DNA of 64,000 bases from Bacteroidales bacterium (GTDB lineage: Bacteria; Bacteroidota; Bacteroidia; Bacteroidales; UBA1402): the NCBI GenBank assembly GCA_035719105.1, contig DASTGN010000009.1, positions 72,708 to 136,707 of the forward strand. Reading direction: 5' to 3'. The notes beneath the pieces were generated by a model. The model was not told the DNA's origin, made no database searches, and saw only the letters and a list, made by a program, of their open reading frames with translations. Both the position numbers and the translations under genes were made by a program. This document shows, one piece after another, positions 1 to 7,784 of the stretch. Position 1 is the stretch's first letter; the number at the start of each line of letters is the position of its first letter.

Positions 1-83
1 TTTCGTTCAACGAGGCGTTTAGAAGGCATGTTCCTGTTGTTGACCTGGAAACTGATGAATAATCCATATGTTATAATTTAGTA

Positions 84-110
84 AAACCGTTCTGAAAGGA
101 CGGTTTTTTT
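84..110 (+). terminator. Rho-independent terminator-like hairpin with T-run, downstream of a gene that lies mostly off the left edge
   Basis: The stem AAACCGTTC / GGACGGTTT encloses a 5-nt loop and is followed by a run of about 7 T. Confidence 0.55.
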
Positions 111-247
111 GTTAAATTTCCAAGGGTTTCCTTGCTTTATTGATGCTGTTTTTGTACTCTTACACAAATAATTGAAAAGTGCGCAAAAAAGTAACTTAGA
201 ACACTAAAAAAAAAGTCCTTTTGCTATCTGGGCTTATCAAAAAGAAC

Positions 248-255
248 TATATTTG
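248..255 (+). promoter_or_regulatory. Bacteroidota-type -7 promoter box candidate (TAnnTTTG) upstream of the hdr/flx cluster
   Basis: TATATTTG lies about 45 bp upstream of the ATG at 301. This is a motif match only. Confidence 0.25.
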
Positions 256-300
256 GGCCGAAATTAGTAAGTCGAAATACGGCATAAAAACACTTTGTGG

Positions 301-861
301 ATGGATAACACAGCAACACTTTCGGAGAACGCATCTCTGAAGCAACTGGTGGAACAAACAGTAGGCGTTGAGATTCAAACCTGCTATCAATGCGGTAAAT
401 GTACCGCCGGTTGCCCTTTAAATGAAGAAATGGATTTGATGCCCAATCAAGTACTTCGAATGTTGCAATCCGAATATCCCGGTTACGAAAAAGAACTGCT
501 CTCGTCCATAAGCATTTGGCTTTGTTTGGCTTGCGACACTTGCTATTCGCGATGCCCTCAGGAAGTGAAACTGCCACTCATCATGGACTTCCTCCGGCAA
601 GAATCGATTCGTCGGAATTTGGTGAACCCAAAAGCCAGGAACATACTGAAGTTTCACCGTGCCTTTCTGGCTGAAGTGGAACGAAATGGCAAATTGAACG
701 AATTCGGTTTGACCATTGATTACAAACTGCACTCCATGAACCTTTTTCAAGACTTGCAGAATGCTCCTTCCATGCTGCTGAAGGGTAAACTCGGCTTTTT
801 TCCGCACAAAGTGCAGAATCCTGCTGAAATTAAAAAACTATTCAAAAAAATTATCGGATGA
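301..861 (+). CDS. hdrC: Heterodisulfide reductase subunit C-like 2x[4Fe-4S] protein
   Basis: It has two ferredoxin motifs, CYQCGKCTAGCP and CLACDTCYSRCP. It overlaps the next gene by 4 bp. I prefer the ATG at 301 over the TTG at 295. Confidence 0.8.
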   Translation: MDNTATLSENASLKQLVEQTVGVEIQTCYQCGKCTAGCPLNEEMDLMPNQVLRMLQSEYPGYEKELLSSISIWLCLACDTCYSRCPQEVKLPLIMDFLRQESIRRNLVNPKARNILKFHRAFLAEVERNGKLNEFGLTIDYKLHSMNLFQDLQNAPSMLLKGKLGFFPHKVQNPAEIKKLFKKIIG

Positions 862-1730
862 GAATAGGTTACTATCCTGGTTGTTCCCTTCAGGGATCGG
901 GAAAAGAATACAGCGAATCCTTGTTTGCCGTGGCCGAGAAGTGCGGTATCGAGTTGGAAGAAATCAACGACTGGAACTGTTGCGGGGCTTCGGCTGCACA
1001 CTCCCTGAACCACGATTTATCGGTGGCATTGCCTGCTCGAACGCTTGCCTTGGCCGAAAAGCAAGGTTTGGAGCAAATTCTGGTGCCTTGCGCTGCTTGT
1101 TTCGGAAGATTAGCTACGGCACAACAAGAATTGGTTTCAAGCGAAGCAATGAAAACGAAGATTTCGGACTATATTGAAATGCCTGTTCAAGGTAGTGCCC
1201 GCATACTGACCGTCTTCGAATTTTTGCAAGAACATATCTTTCCGGTAGCTGATCAATTCGTAGTCAACAAGTTGAACCATAAGACAGCCTGTTATTACGG
1301 TTGCCTGCTGTCCAGACCCAAAGAACTCACCCGCTTGGAACGTCCGGAAGACCCCATGGAAATGGAAAAGGTGATGGAAAAAGCTGGTGCAACGCCTATT
1401 GATTGGGCTTTCAAGACCGAATGCTGTGGTGCCGGACTTTCGGTTTCACGCACCGACATTGTAGCCAAGCTTTCAGCCAAAATAGTAGAAGATGCCGTGT
1501 CCCGCGGTGCCGAATCCATTGTGGTGGCTTGCCCCATGTGCCAGATGAACCTGGACCTTCGCCGCCCTGAAATAAACAAAAACATGGAGCAGCGTTCGGA
1601 TATACCGGTGATGTTCGTTACGCAGGCTTTGGGCCTGAGCATGGGCATCTCTGCCGACCAATTGGGATTGAACAGACATTTCGTATCCACCGACAAGGTT
1701 GTATCCTGTGTCGGCCGCAAAGAGCTTTAA
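858..1730 (+). CDS. hdrB: Heterodisulfide reductase subunit B-like protein with two CCG domains
   Basis: The duplicated CCG signature is present: WNCCGAS followed by PCAAC, and TECCGAG followed by ACPMC. Confidence 0.85.
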   Translation: MRIGYYPGCSLQGSGKEYSESLFAVAEKCGIELEEINDWNCCGASAAHSLNHDLSVALPARTLALAEKQGLEQILVPCAACFGRLATAQQELVSSEAMKTKISDYIEMPVQGSARILTVFEFLQEHIFPVADQFVVNKLNHKTACYYGCLLSRPKELTRLERPEDPMEMEKVMEKAGATPIDWAFKTECCGAGLSVSRTDIVAKLSAKIVEDAVSRGAESIVVACPMCQMNLDLRRPEINKNMEQRSDIPVMFVTQALGLSMGISADQLGLNRHFVSTDKVVSCVGRKEL

Positions 1731-1732
1731 TT

Positions 1733-3745
1733 ATGGCAAGAATAGGCGTTTTTATTTGTCACTGTGGCGAAAACATTTCTGCTACGGTTGATGTGGAAAA
1801 AGTGGCAAGGTTGGCCGGCAAGCTTTCGGGCGTGGCGTACAGCGTGGATTATAAATACATGTGTTCGGATCCAGGACAAACCCTGATCGTGGATGCCATA
1901 AAAGAACACAAACTTACTGGAATAGTTGTTGGAGCCTGTTCGCCGCGAATGCACGAGGGCACTTTTCGCAAAGCTGCCGAAAAAGCGGGCATCAATCCCT
2001 ATTTCTGCGAAATGGCCAACATCCGCGAACACTGCTCCTGGGTACACCCCAAATCGGACGAAACGACACAAAAAGCATTGGACATTGTTCGAACCATGAT
2101 TGAAAAGGTGAAAACCAATTCAGCTTTATTCCCCATCAAAGTGCCCATCACCAAAACAGCTTTGGTCATCGGTGGTGGCATTGCAGGGATTCAAGCAGCA
2201 TTGGATATTGCTAATGCAGGCCATCAGGTCATTATGGTGGAAAAAACACCATCCATCGGCGGGCACATGTCCCAGCTTTCGGAAACCTTCCCCACCCTCG
2301 ACTGCTCGCAGTGTATTTTAACACCGCGTATGGTGGAAGTCGCTCAACATCCAAACATTAAGCTGCACACTTTTGCCACGGTCGAAAACGTTTCCGGCTT
2401 TATCGGCAACTTTGATGTGAACATTCGATTAAAGGCCAAAAGCGTAGACTTTGAAAAATGCACGGGTTGCGGTTCCTGTTGGCAGAAATGTCCCACTAAA
2501 AAAATACCCGACGAATTCAATGCCGGCATGAGTTTCCGCACGGCCATCTATACGCCGTTCCCGCAAGCGGTACCCAACAAGCCGGTCATCGACCGTGCCA
2601 ACTGCAGTTGGTTCACCAAAGGCGGCAAATGCGGCGTGTGTGCTAAGATATGCCCCGTAGGTGCCATCGATTATACCAAGGAGGACGAAATCATTAGCGT
2701 TAAAGTGGGTTCCATCGTGACAGCAACGGGTTTCGACATCAAACACAGCGACTTCTTTCCTGAATACGGATATGGAAAACATCCGGACATCATCGATGGT
2801 TTGCAGTTTGAACGTTTGGCTTCTGCTTCTGGTCCGACTGGTGGTGAAATTCGTCGTCCATCTGACGGCAAAGAACCTGAAACCGTAGTATTTTTAGCTT
2901 GCGCGGGTTCTAGGGACAAGGCTAAGGGCATTGAATATTGCTCCAAAATCTGTTGCATGTACACGGCTAAGCACGCCATGCTGTACAAGCACAAAAACCA
3001 TCACGGAAAGGCACATGTGTTCTACATGGACATTCGTTCAGCCGGCAAGAGCTACGACGAGTTTGTGCGAAGAGCCATAGAAGAAGACGACGTGAACTAT
3101 ATTCGCGGACGGGTTTCCAAAATCTATGAGAAGAACGGCAAGCTGATGGTGGTTGGTGTGGATACGTTGCTGAACGCTAAACCTGTTGTCATCGAGGCTG
3201 ATTTGGTAGTGCTTGCCACAGCAGTGGTGGCCAACCAAGATGCCGAATCCATGGCACAGAAACTACACATCAGCTACGACAAACATCATTTCTTTGCCGA
3301 AGCCCATCCTAAACTCAAACCGGTGGAAACCAACACGGCAGGCATCACGCTGGCCGGTGCTTGCCAATCTGCCAAGGATATACCCGAAACAGTGGCGCAG
3401 GCCTCTGCTGCTGCTGCCAAGACCATCATTCTGTTCTCTGGCAATGAATTGACTCGTGAACCGGTTGTCGCGACGGTAAATCGCTCTGCCCCTCCTGTTT
3501 ACACGACTTGTACCGGCTGCTTCCTCTGCCAGGAAGTTTGCCCCTATCAAGCCATCGAGCGCGAAGAAATTCGTGACCGCGCCGGCAATCTGCTCATGAA
3601 CGCTGCAAAAGTCAATGCCGGACTCTGTCAAGGCTGTGGCACCTGCGTGGCGATGTGCCGCAACAAATCCATCGACCTTCAAGGCTTCTCCAACCAACAG
3701 ATGTTGTCTGAAGTCATGGGCCTGTTAAACGTACCTTTTGAATAA
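1733..3745 (+). CDS. hdrA: Heterodisulfide reductase subunit A-like FAD/FeS flavoprotein
   Basis: It carries the N-terminal VFICHCGENI Cys cluster, the GGGIAGIQAALD dinucleotide fold, and four CxxCxxCxxxC(P) motifs (CTGCGSCWQKCP, CGVCAKICP, CTGCFLCQEVCP, CQGCGTCVAMC). Length is 670 aa. Confidence 0.88.
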   Translation: MARIGVFICHCGENISATVDVEKVARLAGKLSGVAYSVDYKYMCSDPGQTLIVDAIKEHKLTGIVVGACSPRMHEGTFRKAAEKAGINPYFCEMANIREHCSWVHPKSDETTQKALDIVRTMIEKVKTNSALFPIKVPITKTALVIGGGIAGIQAALDIANAGHQVIMVEKTPSIGGHMSQLSETFPTLDCSQCILTPRMVEVAQHPNIKLHTFATVENVSGFIGNFDVNIRLKAKSVDFEKCTGCGSCWQKCPTKKIPDEFNAGMSFRTAIYTPFPQAVPNKPVIDRANCSWFTKGGKCGVCAKICPVGAIDYTKEDEIISVKVGSIVTATGFDIKHSDFFPEYGYGKHPDIIDGLQFERLASASGPTGGEIRRPSDGKEPETVVFLACAGSRDKAKGIEYCSKICCMYTAKHAMLYKHKNHHGKAHVFYMDIRSAGKSYDEFVRRAIEEDDVNYIRGRVSKIYEKNGKLMVVGVDTLLNAKPVVIEADLVVLATAVVANQDAESMAQKLHISYDKHHFFAEAHPKLKPVETNTAGITLAGACQSAKDIPETVAQASAAAAKTIILFSGNELTREPVVATVNRSAPPVYTTCTGCFLCQEVCPYQAIEREEIRDRAGNLLMNAAKVNAGLCQGCGTCVAMCRNKSIDLQGFSNQQMLSEVMGLLNVPFE

Positions 3746-4214
3746 TTCCATGGCTGAATCTTTTGAACCCAAAATTGTCGCATTCGTCTGCAACTGGTGT
3801 ACTTACGCCGGTGCTGACTTGGCTGGGACTTCCCGGACCAAATACGAGACCAACGTCCGAATCATTCGCTTCCCCTGTACGGGCCGCATTGACTTCATGT
3901 TGCTGATCAAGGCTTTTCAGAACGGTGCGGACGGCATCATCGTTTCGGGTTGTCATCCGAACGACTGTCACTACACTTCTGGAAATTTCCACGCTCGTCG
4001 TCGCTGGATGGTCTTCAAGTCGATGCTCGAGTTCATGGGCTTCCCGACCGAGCGCATCACTTTTTCATGGGTTTCGGCCGCTGAAGGGAAAAAATGGGCT
4101 GACTTGGTGAACGAAACGACGGACAGCATTCGTTCATTAGGACCCTTTACGGAATATAAGAATCTTGATTTTTCACAATTCAATCAGTTGGATCATGACG
4201 CCATTGCAAAATAA
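3738..4214 (+). CDS. MvhD/FlxD-like hydrogenase iron-sulfur subunit D family protein
   Basis: FVCNWCTYAGADLAG, RFPCTGR and SGCHPNDCHY are typical of MvhD-type proteins. It overlaps hdrA by 8 bp. Confidence 0.85.
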   Translation: MNNSMAESFEPKIVAFVCNWCTYAGADLAGTSRTKYETNVRIIRFPCTGRIDFMLLIKAFQNGADGIIVSGCHPNDCHYTSGNFHARRRWMVFKSMLEFMGFPTERITFSWVSAAEGKKWADLVNETTDSIRSLGPFTEYKNLDFSQFNQLDHDAIAK

Positions 4215-4998
4215 GGCCGCCGAGCTGCTGGAAAACGGAACCGTGAACTTGTTGATCGGTTTCAGCGAGGATTTGGGCAAACGTCCTGTCCCCTGCTTCA
4301 TCGAGACTGCCGCTGAAGCCAACACACTGATATTCAATCAGGATTGTAAAAACAACCTATCGGTTTACCTGCATAAGAAAGAAGTGAAGGAAGCGGTTAA
4401 AATCGGCTTGGTCGCCAATATAGCTACTTTGCGTTCCGTCATGCAGCTGCTCTCTGAAAATCAACTTTGGTCGCTGACCTTGACGTATCTGACCGTGAAT
4501 ACTGCCGGAGAGCTGGTTGTATTGAGTTCAGCCGAGGAGCTTGAAGCGTACGTACAGGCGAATTTTCCGACTTGCAGGCCAGAAGACCAGGAAATGTTGG
4601 ACAAACTCAACGCCATGAGCCGCGAAGAGCGTTGGGCTTTTTGGAAGGATCAGCTCTCCGAATGCGTGAAATGCTATGCTTGCCGTGCAGTTTGCCCGAT
4701 GTGCTATTGCACGGTCTGTACGACGGAATGCAACCAACCGCAATGGATTAAGACCTCAGCCGAAACATCCGGCAATTTTGAATACCACACCATGCGTGCC
4801 ATGCACCTGGGCGGACGTTGCATCAACTGCGGCGAATGCGGACGAATCTGTCCTGCAGGCATTCCGGTGCACTTGTTGACAGCACAAATGAACCAAGAAA
4901 TCGAGCAGGAATTCGGAGGAAAGACTGGTTGGTCGCTCAAAGGCGGATACGCCTTGAATTCGTTCAAGCCGGGCGACAAAGAAAACTTCATCAAATAA
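4195..4998 (+). CDS. FlxC-like 4Fe-4S dicluster protein
   Basis: It has the motifs CVKCYACRAVCPMCYC and CINCGECGRICPAG. The start is ambiguous between ATG 4165 and ATG 4195. Confidence 0.65.
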   Translation: MTPLQNKAAELLENGTVNLLIGFSEDLGKRPVPCFIETAAEANTLIFNQDCKNNLSVYLHKKEVKEAVKIGLVANIATLRSVMQLLSENQLWSLTLTYLTVNTAGELVVLSSAEELEAYVQANFPTCRPEDQEMLDKLNAMSREERWAFWKDQLSECVKCYACRAVCPMCYCTVCTTECNQPQWIKTSAETSGNFEYHTMRAMHLGGRCINCGECGRICPAGIPVHLLTAQMNQEIEQEFGGKTGWSLKGGYALNSFKPGDKENFIK

Positions 4999-5003
4999 GT
5001 GAT

Positions 5004-6011
5004 ATGGAACTGAAACTCATTTCAAACTCCGACATAGCCGTTTTCTTTGACGGTCTCCTTAAAGCTGGAAAAGTCGTGGTCGCTCCGGTGCTGAAGCAAA
5101 GCGGCAAAGTCTTTTTCAAACCCGTCCAGTCCTTCTCGGAAGTGGCGACAGATTACATTCAAACCGCCTTTTCGGCTAAGGAAGTGGTTTTTCCCAAAGT
5201 GGAAGAACTGTTTACTTTTCAGCACAACGAGGAGGGTGGCTTGGATATCAACGATCACCTGGATCGTATTCCCGAAACGGTGGTTTGGGGATTGCGCCCC
5301 TGCGATGCGGCGGCTTTTGATTACTTAAACCAATTCTTTCTGAAAGAGAACCCAGATGCCTATTTCAAAGCACGTTACGACAAGATGACGTTAGTCACCA
5401 TAAGTTGTCACTCCTGCGATGAAAGTTGTTTTTGCACCTCGGTGGGCTCCCATCCTGGCGATACGAAAGGTAGTGACTTGTTGCTCACGGCTATGAATGG
5501 TTCCTTTTATGTGGAAGTCATGACCGATAAAGGTAACAATCTAATTAATAGTAATTCAACCCTATTTGCTTCAACTGAAACTTTAAGCAAGGATGCCTTC
5601 TTGGCCAAACCGGTCACGCAGTTTTCGATGGACGAAATCAAGGATAAAATTCAGAACGCCTACGCTAGTGCGGAGTGGAAACACGCCTCGATGGGTTGCT
5701 ACAGTTGCGGTGCCTGTGCCTTTGCTTGCCCTACCTGCACCTGTTTCGACATCCAGGACGAAGGGACTCAAGATCATGGCAGACGGGTGCGCTGCTGGGA
5801 CGCCTGCGGGTTGAGCCAGTTCACCAAACACGCTTCCGGTCACAATCCCAGAAATACCCAAACCGAACGTCGCCGCCAGCGCCTGATGCACAAATTCAAG
5901 TATTCGGTCGAAAACTTGGGCGTTGTGAGTTGCGTCGGTTGCGGTCGTTGCATCCGCGTTTGCCCTTCCCATTTGAACATTTTTGAAAACATTCTGAGCG
6001 TTACGAAATAA
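5004..6011 (+). CDS. FlxB / AsrA / sulfhydrogenase-beta-like 4Fe-4S protein
   Basis: It has the motifs CYSCGACAFACPTCTCFD and CVGCGRCIRVCP. The ATG at 5004 sits just after the upstream stop. The longer ORF from 4818 overlaps the previous gene and was not used. Confidence 0.7.
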   Translation: MELKLISNSDIAVFFDGLLKAGKVVVAPVLKQSGKVFFKPVQSFSEVATDYIQTAFSAKEVVFPKVEELFTFQHNEEGGLDINDHLDRIPETVVWGLRPCDAAAFDYLNQFFLKENPDAYFKARYDKMTLVTISCHSCDESCFCTSVGSHPGDTKGSDLLLTAMNGSFYVEVMTDKGNNLINSNSTLFASTETLSKDAFLAKPVTQFSMDEIKDKIQNAYASAEWKHASMGCYSCGACAFACPTCTCFDIQDEGTQDHGRRVRCWDACGLSQFTKHASGHNPRNTQTERRRQRLMHKFKYSVENLGVVSCVGCGRCIRVCPSHLNIFENILSVTK

Positions 6012-6841
6012 TGGATACCAACCAATACATTCCTTATCAGGTCCGCATTGCCGACATCATCGAAGAAGCACCGCTGGTGCGAACATACAGGCTGGAATTT
6101 ACAGACCCGTCAGCTTCCTTCACCTTTAAAGCCGGGCAATTTGCCGAATACGGCGTGTTCGGCGAGGGAGAAAGCACGTTTTGCATTGCCTCCTCTCCCA
6201 CCCGCGAAGGGTACATTGAATGTACTTTTCGCAGCACAGGTCGGGTGACCAAAGCCTTGGCCAATTGCGAAATCAACGACATCATTGGTTTGCGAGGACC
6301 GTTTGGCAAAGCTTTCCCCATCGAAGAATGGTATGGCAAAGACATCGTATTTATCACGGGCGGTATTGGCTTGCCTCCCTTGCGTTGCGTGATTTGGAAT
6401 GTGCTCGATCAACGGGAAAAGTTCGGCAAGGTTTCCATTTATTACGGAGCAAGAACGGTTGCTGACTTGGTTTACAAGGAGGAATTGGAAAATTGGAAAA
6501 ACAGAGACGACGTGGATTTGTTCCTGACGGTCGATCCAGGTGGTGAAACCAAGGATTGGAAGGACAACGTGGGTTTCGTGCCGACCATCATTGAACAGAA
6601 CCTACCTTCCAGCGATAATGCCATAGCCATTGTGGCTGGACCTCCCATCCTCATTAAGATGTCCATGCCGATTTTGGCCAAGTGCGGATTCGCCAACGAT
6701 AAGATTTTCACTACGTTGGAGAACCGAATGAAATGTGGTGTCGGAAAATGCGGTCACTGCACGGTTGGTAAAACCTATGTTTGCAAGGACGGCCCTGTGT
6801 TCACGTACGAGGAAGTCTTGCAAATGCCGCAAGAATATTAG
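6011..6841 (+). CDS. FlxA / AsrB / PyrK-like FAD- and NAD(P)-binding oxidoreductase with C-terminal 2Fe-2S site
   Basis: FKAGQFAEY and FCIASSP mark the FAD-binding part, ITGGIGLPPL marks the NAD(P) fold, and the C-terminal Cys cluster is CGVGKCGHCTVG followed by VCKDGPVF. Confidence 0.8.
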   Translation: MDTNQYIPYQVRIADIIEEAPLVRTYRLEFTDPSASFTFKAGQFAEYGVFGEGESTFCIASSPTREGYIECTFRSTGRVTKALANCEINDIIGLRGPFGKAFPIEEWYGKDIVFITGGIGLPPLRCVIWNVLDQREKFGKVSIYYGARTVADLVYKEELENWKNRDDVDLFLTVDPGGETKDWKDNVGFVPTIIEQNLPSSDNAIAIVAGPPILIKMSMPILAKCGFANDKIFTTLENRMKCGVGKCGHCTVGKTYVCKDGPVFTYEEVLQMPQEY

Positions 6842-6906
6842 CCTCCTTGCGCCCAGTGCTTTTTGTATTTGATTGTATTTGGGGTGTAGTTATGTCAAAA
6901 CACGGT

Positions 6907-7052
6907 TTTTTATTATCGCTATAATAGGAGCGAAATTGCACCTAAAATAGACATTATGGTAGCTATAATTTGCAGCTTGGGGTTTGCATATTATAGATAC
7001 TCTGGTAGCTAATTTTGCCACTTTTTTGATAGCTCGATAGCGATAATAAAAA
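6907..7052. repeat. Perfect 16-bp inverted repeat flanking a 114-bp spacer that contains short direct repeats
   Basis: TTTTTATTATCGCTAT at 6907-6922 is the exact reverse complement of ATAGCGATAATAAAAA at 7037-7052. Inside the spacer, TGGTAGCTATAATTTGC (6957-6973) resembles TGGTAGCTAATTTTGC (7003-7018). TATAATAGG occurs at 6920-6928 and again at 7063-7071. Confidence 0.7.
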
Positions 7053-7082
7053 TGTGCGTTTTATAATAGGTAGAAACAAAAC

Positions 7083-7784
7083 TTATTGATCAATTCTATA
7101 AATCAATAAAACGCCTTGATCGATGGAAAGGGAGAATTGATCTCCGGCAGATTCGTTGAGGGTTCCCTGCCACCAAGAAGTAAGGCTTCTGTTTTCCAAT
7201 GCATAACGCAGACCGAGGGAGGAAATGCGGGTGTCGGGCGTCAAAGAAAAGATGGAAACTTGCTGTCCTTTAAAGCTTTGAAATCGAGCAACAGTAAATG
7301 CTCCATCCCGGGTGGTGCAAACTTCGGGAGCTTTGGTATCCAAACCCGGTTCTAAATAATCATCGACATTCATACCAGATCGGAAGGCATCGATGCGTCC
7401 ATAATCCGTGAGCAAACAGACTGATTTCAGACGGGTTGCATAATCGGCCAGTAAGGAAATGTTTCCAAGCGTGTGGTCTTCACGCAGGCCAGTGGCTCCA
7501 AGTATGGCTATTTCGTCAAATCCCTGAGTGATGCAATATTCCACCGCTTTGGTGAGATCGTTCGTTTCCTGCTCGGCCACAAGGTGAATCTTTGCGGTGA
7601 ACTGGGCTTTGAGTTCTGACGATAGACTGTCCATATCGCCGACAATGGCAAGGGGTTCACGGCCGAAATCGAGCAATTTTGCTGTTGCACCATCGCAGCA
7701 AACAATATTTTCGGCATTCCGAAGGAGTTCTTGACGTTTACGGGTGGTTGGAAAGGATCCATCTGCCAGAATGAGTGCTTGCAT
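7083..7784 (-). CDS. Thiamine pyrophosphokinase
   Basis: It has LILADG, VCCDGA and IVGDMDS motifs. At 233 aa it sits directly downstream of a riboswitch-controlled receptor. Confidence 0.8.
   Translation of the reverse strand: MQALILADGSFPTTRKRQELLRNAENIVCCDGATAKLLDFGREPLAIVGDMDSLSSELKAQFTAKIHLVAEQETNDLTKAVEYCITQGFDEIAILGATGLREDHTLGNISLLADYATRLKSVCLLTDYGRIDAFRSGMNVDDYLEPGLDTKAPEVCTTRDGAFTVARFQSFKGQQVSIFSLTPDTRISSLGLRYALENRSLTSWWQGTLNESAGDQFSLSIDQGVLLIYRIDQ

Follow-up and report, generated by a model that had tools for sequence, protein, structure and literature searches.

What does a complete set of genes of the heterodisulfide reductase (Hdr) type do in a bacterium in whose genome the protein proposed as its electron acceptor, DsrC, is not found? 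The question is raised by a stretch of 64,000 nucleotides from an uncultured member of the Bacteroidales (contig DASTGN010000009.1 of assembly GCA_035719105.1; G000:C9:72708-136707), called the window in this paper, which belongs to a 2.95-Mb, 97%-complete genome. As seen in Table 1, seven tightly packed co-directional genes, hdrC-hdrB-hdrA-flxD-flxC-flxB-flxA, occupy positions 301-6841 of its plus strand. Their products probably form a Flx-Hdr (Flox-Hdr) complex, soluble and cytoplasmic, like that of Desulfovibrio and Bilophila, with a presumed electron-bifurcating path linked to reduced nicotinamide adenine dinucleotide or its phosphate (NAD(P)H). The operon is intact and typical, and belongs to an already described complex, with nothing new in kind. 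The question of its acceptor had been recognised before this analysis.

The families of the proteins were assigned by Pfam and NCBIfam profile searches and by comparison with chains of the PDB, and the matches of the seven proteins are not due to chance. HdrA contains a fold for flavin adenine dinucleotide (FAD) and pyridine nucleotide, several Fer4 domains, and Cys motifs for six [4Fe-4S] clusters, and is presumed to be the bifurcating subunit. It is matched over its full length by PDB 5odc_A (658 bits), and its best NCBIfam match is the HdrA2 model NF040770 (749 bits, cut-off 1100). Conservation reaches at least 99% for 28 of the 29 Cys and 94% for the remaining one, and 52% of the alignment columns show 95% identity or more. 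HdrC has one 4Fe-4S dicluster domain, in which the motif CxxCxxCxxxCP appears twice and provides two [4Fe-4S] sites; all 8 Cys are 100% conserved among 75 homologues. HdrB matches the CCG family PF02754 in two stretches (87 bits), and its residues C9, C41, C42, C78, C81, C145, C149, C189, C190, C225, and C228 are invariant. It is presumed to be the disulfide-reducing catalytic subunit with two non-cubane [4Fe-4S] sites.

The Flx subunits display an equally complete set of cofactor sites. FlxD belongs to the FlpD/MvhD family PF02662 (172 bits), a connector of the MvhD type with a [2Fe-2S] cluster; it matches the MvhD subunits of the Hdr complexes 5odc and 7bkb at 152-156 bits (156 for 7bkb_F), and its 5 Cys are invariant. 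FlxC is a Fer4 dicluster iron-sulfur (Fe-S) protein with 11 invariant Cys in its Cys-rich C-terminal part. Its N-terminal domain matched no named family, and an atlas search returned only generic 'Fe-S oxidoreductase' clusters for it. FlxB is an Fe-S protein resembling AsrA and the beta subunit of sulfhydrogenase (HydB), with matches to Fer4_22 (109 bits), NF040833 (165 bits), TIGR02910 (150 bits), and PDB 9nez_B (137 bits). FlxA, which is AsrB/HydG/PyrK-like, combines PF00970 (FAD_binding_6), PF00175 (NAD_binding_1), and PF10418 (DHODB 2Fe-2S), scores 191 bits to 9nez_C (sulfhydrogenase I gamma) and 190 bits to TIGR02911, and retains C242, C247, C250, and C258, the ligands of its C-terminal [2Fe-2S] cluster, as invariant residues. 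FlxA is the presumed entry point of NAD(P)H; the NCBIfam names of NF040833 and NF040835 describe the sulfhydrogenase I of Pyrococcus furiosus as NADPH-dependent. No convincing membrane helix was found in any of the seven Flx-Hdr proteins. When a complex of FlxB, FlxC, and FlxD was predicted with FlxD as the partner, a control with chain 1 replaced still scored high.

Conservation of the operon was followed across genomes. A pattern scan of species genomes yielded 594 confirmed relatives of HdrB, and the loci analysed are the best 80 of these 594. All seven genes occur in identical order in about 65 of the 80 loci, and the putative Fe-S ligand Cys of all seven proteins are conserved at 97-100% in 62-78 homologous operons. 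What is directly observed is thus the content and order of the genes, cofactor sites that are intact, conservation over many genomes, and products that are soluble by sequence. The original prediction had recognised seven contiguous or overlapping genes by their hallmark motifs, had taken them for a complete set of HdrABC, an MvhD-like FlxD, and FlxCBA, and had pointed to the HdrB cysteines and to synteny as places to look further. On each of these points it is borne out by the profile matches, the alignments, and the shared gene order. It had also described the order as different from that of the known cluster, which is incorrect: hdrCBA-flxDCBA is the published name and order of the Desulfovibrio/Bilophila cluster (PMC6103483, PMC12125255), and the claim arose because a convention for naming the proteins was misread as gene order.

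From these sites a path of electrons can be proposed by homology. A hydride from NAD(P)H would be transferred to the FAD of FlxA, and next in line would be the [2Fe-2S] cluster of FlxA, the Fe-S clusters in FlxB and FlxC, and the MvhD-like [2Fe-2S] cluster in FlxD, from which electrons would reach the FAD in HdrA. At this flavin the electron pair would split. One electron would travel uphill via the ferredoxin domains of HdrA to ferredoxin; the other would run downhill through HdrC and the two non-cubane clusters of HdrB to a high-potential acceptor, most likely a disulfide. The reverse reaction may also be possible. The order of the wiring and the direction of the reaction, like the use of NAD(P)H, the bifurcation, and the acceptor, are inferred. 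The likely role of the complex in this organism is to link the NADH and ferredoxin pools in fermentation, because rnfC was not found in the host genome, while pyruvate:ferredoxin oxidoreductase (PFOR) and one [FeFe] hydrogenase (G000:C4:495875-500125) are present. The hydrogenase adjoins a NuoF/RnfC-like frame and is possibly of the HydABC type.

Several points weigh against this explanation. DsrC is the acceptor proposed for Flx-Hdr in sulfate reducers such as Desulfovibrio. No DsrC/TusE (PF04358) was found in the 97%-complete host genome, so that the proposal for Desulfovibrio cannot apply here. Among 48 operon-bearing genomes, DsrC was found in 13 and not found in 35, and it was seen in none of the cultured Bacteroidales among them; in the family f22, DsrC occurs with and without the operon alike. 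DsrC is thus rejected as the partner in the host genome and in most carriers. HdrB is distant from its methanogen counterpart (128 bits to PDB 8rvu_b), and it scores 168 bits to a CCG model of the SdhE type and 160 bits to the HdrB model, both far under the cut-offs; with scores so nearly equal, a disulfide substrate is not proven. The NAD(P)H dependence and the bifurcation of the Bacteroidota complexes are inferred from homology, and the likeness to the Desulfovibrio vulgaris cluster is one of protein types and order rather than of direct sequence comparison. Also, rnfC is present in 24 of the 48 operon-bearing genomes, which indicates that Flx-Hdr is not simply a replacement for Rnf.

The original prediction had noted that no dsrC, metF/metV, or hydrogenase gene lies near the operon, and this holds more widely: DsrC was found nowhere in the genome, and metF and the [FeFe] hydrogenase are on another contig. 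The novelty it attached to the absent thiol substrate was overstated, since most carriers lack DsrC as well and the same gap in thiol carriers has been discussed for a Syntrophomonas genome without DsrC (PMC6687939). Genes conserved near the operon offered no further clue to the acceptor: clustering of all flanking open reading frames (ORFs) revealed none kept across loci besides the seven. Energetic considerations narrow the choice. For NADH (-320 mV) to drive the reduction of ferredoxin, a second acceptor near -150 mV or higher is needed. This excludes couples of the lipoamide and thioredoxin type; what remains is either a special disulfide or some non-thiol oxidant, menaquinone for example.

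Among the alternatives, it is conceivable, if unlikely, that the complex does not bifurcate or runs mainly in reverse. It would then be a plain NAD(P)H:disulfide (or polysulfide/persulfide) reductase, or a confurcating producer of NAD(P)H that consumes reduced ferredoxin and a thiol. FlxA and FlxB most resemble gamma and beta of sulfhydrogenase, an enzyme that also reduces sulfur in vitro, and PFOR supplies reduced ferredoxin in the host genome. A reversed direction during fermentation has moreover been reported for the Desulfovibrio enzyme (PMC12125255). Against a plain reductase stands HdrA, in which no cluster site and no domain of the bifurcating enzyme from methanogens is missing, an equipment that would be needless there. 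As for a reverse-running complex, direction is not something that sequence can reveal.

A reading to which a low probability is given keeps the architecture of Flx-Hdr and replaces the disulfide with another oxidant: HdrB would pass electrons to menaquinone at the membrane surface, as SdhE does, or to another organic oxidant, and the complex would be an NADH:ferredoxin/quinone bifurcase that feeds the respiratory chain. It draws on the slightly higher score of HdrB to the model of SdhE, a subunit of methylmenaquinol:fumarate reductase, and on the genome, in which neither DsrC nor another CCG-domain protein able to re-oxidise a thiol was found (CCG domains occur in hdrB only). It draws as well on the operon standing head to head with nuo in one Bacteroidales clade and on its continuation into a dihydroorotate dehydrogenase (DHOD)-like gene and nuoABCDH in a Marinifilum metagenome-assembled genome (MAG). 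However, both HdrB scores fall far under their cut-offs, all of the ten-plus CCG cysteines of a disulfide-reducing site are retained, and neither a membrane anchor nor a convincing hydrophobic helix is present in any of the seven proteins. The adjacency to nuo is confined to that clade and one extra locus and is absent here, where an 11-subunit-type nuo operon lies on contig C4.

Two further readings have next to no probability. Sulfur-oxidising Hdr-like systems of the sHdr type are marked by a short sHdrA (~340 aa), two HdrB/HdrC pairs, lipoate-binding LbpA proteins, and the lack of MvhD and Flx. The host does have HdrABC-like genes and, elsewhere in the genome, a DsrE2-like gene; nevertheless, an sHdr-type reading, raised earlier as a possible reversal of the first assignment, is refuted by domain architecture and gene set, as HdrA has 670 aa and matches methanogen HdrA over its full length (658 bits) but sHdrA 6tjr only partially (143 bits), a single HdrB in the genome means that there is no hdrC2B2, MvhD and FlxCBA are present, and the only GcvH-type gene is on contig C4, outside the cluster. 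An HdrCBA-MvhD-MetVF methylene-tetrahydrofolate reductase of the acetogen type or an Hdr linked to hydrogenase or formate dehydrogenase would share HdrCBA and MvhD with the operon, but is refuted by gene context, the single metF lying on contig C4 between genes for U32 and S41 peptidases with no adjacent metV, and FlxCBA standing in the place where a hydrogenase or formate dehydrogenase gene would adjoin.

The bifurcating Flx-Hdr complex thus remains the preferred explanation, and many anaerobic Bacteroidota have its operon. Examples in culture are Segatella paludivivens, four Dysgonomonas, Bacteroides sp. KFT8, and B. vicugnae, and the MAGs in which it occurs bear the labels Paludibacter, Prolixibacteraceae, Lentimicrobium, Rikenellaceae, Ignavibacteria, Aminicenantes, Acidobacteria, Omnitrophica, and Leptospirales. 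When the phylum was sampled evenly, an HdrB relative turned up in 66 of 301 genomes, with the majority in f22. One f22 genome that was inspected has the seven genes in the same order and an HdrA 63% identical to that of the window; apparent internal stops in the HdrA matches of f22, considered as selenocysteine, proved to be nothing but the terminal stop codon, past which the match had been extended. HdrA occurs in all sampled genomes of two f22 genera (g58 and g61, 14/14 in each) and was not found in a third (g67, 0/13); in the family f25, 6 of 14 genomes have the operon. All 21 sampled f22 genomes without rnfC carry the operon, and all 13 without the operon carry rnfC, a pattern that fits a shared role in NADH/ferredoxin coupling and reflects few independent events. 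The complementarity of Rnf and Flx-Hdr holds within f22 and fails across the 48 carriers.

The HdrA tree mostly tracks taxonomy. The clade of the window (the window, L004, L006, and L027) stands beside Ignavibacteria-like rows, with which the operons of MAGs titled Hyphomicrobiales (L008, L010, L016, L060) also group, and an 'Omnitrophica' row (L018) is the sister of Lentimicrobium with strong support. These placements suggest either gene transfer or bins that are contaminated or carry the wrong label. L008 also has a gene of the DsrC family, which lies on the strand opposite to flxA and about 2.3 kb beyond it. Several departures from the common layout were seen. In some Bacteroidales (L042, L046, L057, L079), several of them from termite gut, hdrC-hdrB stand alone; hdrA is encoded elsewhere, with 70-71% identity, in L046, L057, and L079, where the operon is thus split, and was not found in L042. 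Loci of the Paludibacter/Microbacter type (L012, L014, L015, L017, L035) have unusually wide intergenic gaps with small extra ORFs.

Additional genes join the operon in certain branches. A 344-aa 'dihydroorotate dehydrogenase-like protein' (PRK07565, 400 bits) accompanies it in 11 loci of one HdrA clade (L020 7129-8163, L022 8381-9415, L023 11083-12117, and 8 more), where its gene lies before hdrC, between hdrB and hdrA, or after flxA. Because FlxA is PyrK-like, this protein could serve the clade as a substrate module of its own. The genome of the window yielded no homologue, and a literature search found no paper linking it to Hdr. In one Bacteroidales clade, the hdr-flx operon is head to head with an 11-subunit nuo operon, of which nuoA-H were seen (L037, L043, L047, L049, L053, L056, L062, L069, L070, L074, L080), and in the Marinifilum MAG (L020) flxA, the DHOD-like gene, and nuoABCDH follow one another on the same strand. 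This adjacency hints at a link of Flx-Hdr with the NuoEFG-less complex I of Bacteroidota.

The host genome has other genes that bear on its redox metabolism. NuoB/NuoD-like genes apart from the nuo operon (G000:C8:205278-207113) possibly represent a membrane hydrogenase of the Ech/Mbh type; together with the [FeFe] hydrogenase, PFOR, and the rnfC that was not found, they outline the ferredoxin economy of the organism. A second Hdr-related cluster is located on the minus strand at 4018-11234 of L002 (G000:C8:443000-462999). Its products are an MvhD-like protein of 132 aa, a 917-aa protein in which a GltD/NfnB-like NAD(P)-binding part is fused to a part of the HdrA type, an HdrA-like protein of 687 aa, and a QmoC-like protein of 348 aa that has about 6 membrane helices, and beside it are genes for a DsrE2-like sulfur carrier and a YeiH-type membrane protein. 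This cluster looks like a membrane-bound, NAD(P)H-linked complex of the Qmo type, in an organism where DsrC was not found. A multiheme electron conduit is encoded elsewhere in the window.

The coordinates of the operon and of its candidate control signals are given in Table 1. The raw ORFs of flxD, flxC, and flxB begin farther upstream, and their ATG starts were set by alignment to homologues and PDB chains. For flxB, the raw ORF from 4818 includes an upstream extension, and homology begins near 5004; for flxD, M5 of the longer ORF aligns with M1 of MvhD in the 7bkb_F alignment.

Table 1. Genes of the Flx-Hdr operon and candidate control signals, in window coordinates.
Feature	Position	Strand	Remarks
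Intrinsic-terminator-like hairpin	83..117	+	strong hairpin (83-107, 11-bp stem) and T run; terminator scan
Candidate Bacteroidetes-type promoter	218..257	+	TTTG near 220-223, TATATTTG at ~250-257; read from sequence
hdrC	301-861	+	186 aa; first gene
hdrB	858-1730	+	290 aa; 4-nt ATGA overlap with hdrC
hdrA	1733-3745	+	670-aa flavoprotein; 2-nt gap after hdrB
flxD	3750-4214	+	154 aa; 4-nt gap after hdrA; alternative TTG start 3738
flxC	4195-4998	+	267 aa; 20-nt overlap with flxD
flxB	5004-6011	+	335 aa; 5-nt gap after flxC
flxA	6011-6841	+	276 aa; 1-nt overlap with flxB

Upstream of hdrC and co-directional with it, a gene for an Lrp/AsnC-family regulator ends near window position 62 (window 1-62; L001 11586-12062). 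The terminator-like hairpin closes this gene, and the hdr operon therefore has its own start. The regulator gene is restricted to the clade of the window (the window, L004, L005), other carriers being without it, and its product may regulate the operon in this lineage specifically. The candidate promoter element TATATTTG sits 44 nt ahead of the hdrC ATG; with TTTG, it forms a pair that we take to resemble the -33/-7 consensus of Bacteroides. Matches in a sigma-70 promoter scan were no more numerous than in shuffles, and no Rfam family, riboswitch or other RNA, was found in window 1-7200. Downstream, on the opposite strand, are genes for a thiamin pyrophosphokinase and a TonB-dependent receptor.

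Flx-Hdr is among the most widespread putative electron-bifurcating complexes, and its physiological acceptor has only been proposed, as DsrC in sulfate reducers. Most carriers of the Bacteroidota type were found without DsrC. Several of these are cultured, such as Segatella paludivivens, Dysgonomonas species, and Bacteroides sp. KFT8, so the acceptor question can be tested in tractable organisms. The operon also points to a way by which a fermenter whose genome yielded no rnfC could keep NADH and ferredoxin in balance. A more far-reaching idea, to which only a small probability is given, is that in Bacteroidota without DsrC, the host of the window included, the complex is the main soluble NADH/ferredoxin coupler and uses a novel acceptor. 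Candidates could be a low-molecular-weight or protein disulfide, menaquinone, or, in one clade, the substrate of the DHOD-like protein. If this were true, a phylum dominant in gut and sediment would have a new branch of anaerobic energy metabolism, defined by the identity of the acceptor.

Comparison with known systems places the operon among several relatives. The beta and gamma subunits of Pyrococcus furiosus sulfhydrogenase I (9nez), together with AsrAB, are the nearest solved or named relatives of FlxB and FlxA; unlike sulfhydrogenase I and anaerobic sulfite reductase, the operon has neither hydrogenase alpha/delta nor the siroheme subunit AsrC, and its scores are below the cut-offs. HdrA2B2C2 of Methanosarcina acetivorans (PMC5296606) is approached by HdrA at 749 bits and by FlxD at 162 bits to the MvhD part fused in HdrA2. 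In the window, however, MvhD has a gene of its own, neither score reaches the cut-off of 1100, and the M. acetivorans complex itself takes electrons from F420H2 or ferredoxin and has no Flx module. With the methanogen MvhAGD-HdrABC and formate dehydrogenase (Fdh)-Hdr complexes (5odc, 7bkb, 8rvu), the operon has in common an HdrA that aligns from end to end and lacks none of the cluster sites, the cofactor motifs of HdrB and HdrC, and an MvhD to which FlxD scores as given above. The donor module differs, being FlxCBA with NAD(P)H rather than hydrogenase or formate dehydrogenase, and HdrB has diverged. A canonical Hdr for coenzymes B and M was rejected, as the scores are below the NCBIfam equivalog cut-offs (HdrA 570/1400, HdrB 160/345, HdrC 67/160); to our knowledge, the substrate CoM-S-S-CoB is not to be expected in bacteria.

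The Flx-Hdr of Desulfovibrio (Nitratidesulfovibrio) vulgaris Hildenborough and Bilophila wadsworthia differs in its setting. The host of the window is an uncultured Bacteroidales bacterium of fermentative type without DsrC, and no alcohol dehydrogenase gene adjoins its operon. The published hdrCBA-flxDCBA cluster is widespread across phyla, has a part in NADH recycling in Desulfovibrio, and is needed by Bilophila for gut colonisation (PMC6103483, PMC12125255). The same seven protein types in the same gene order are found in the window, and in both complexes, which are soluble, a subunit with FAD gives entry to NAD(P)H, a connector of the MvhD type follows, and HdrABC is complete.

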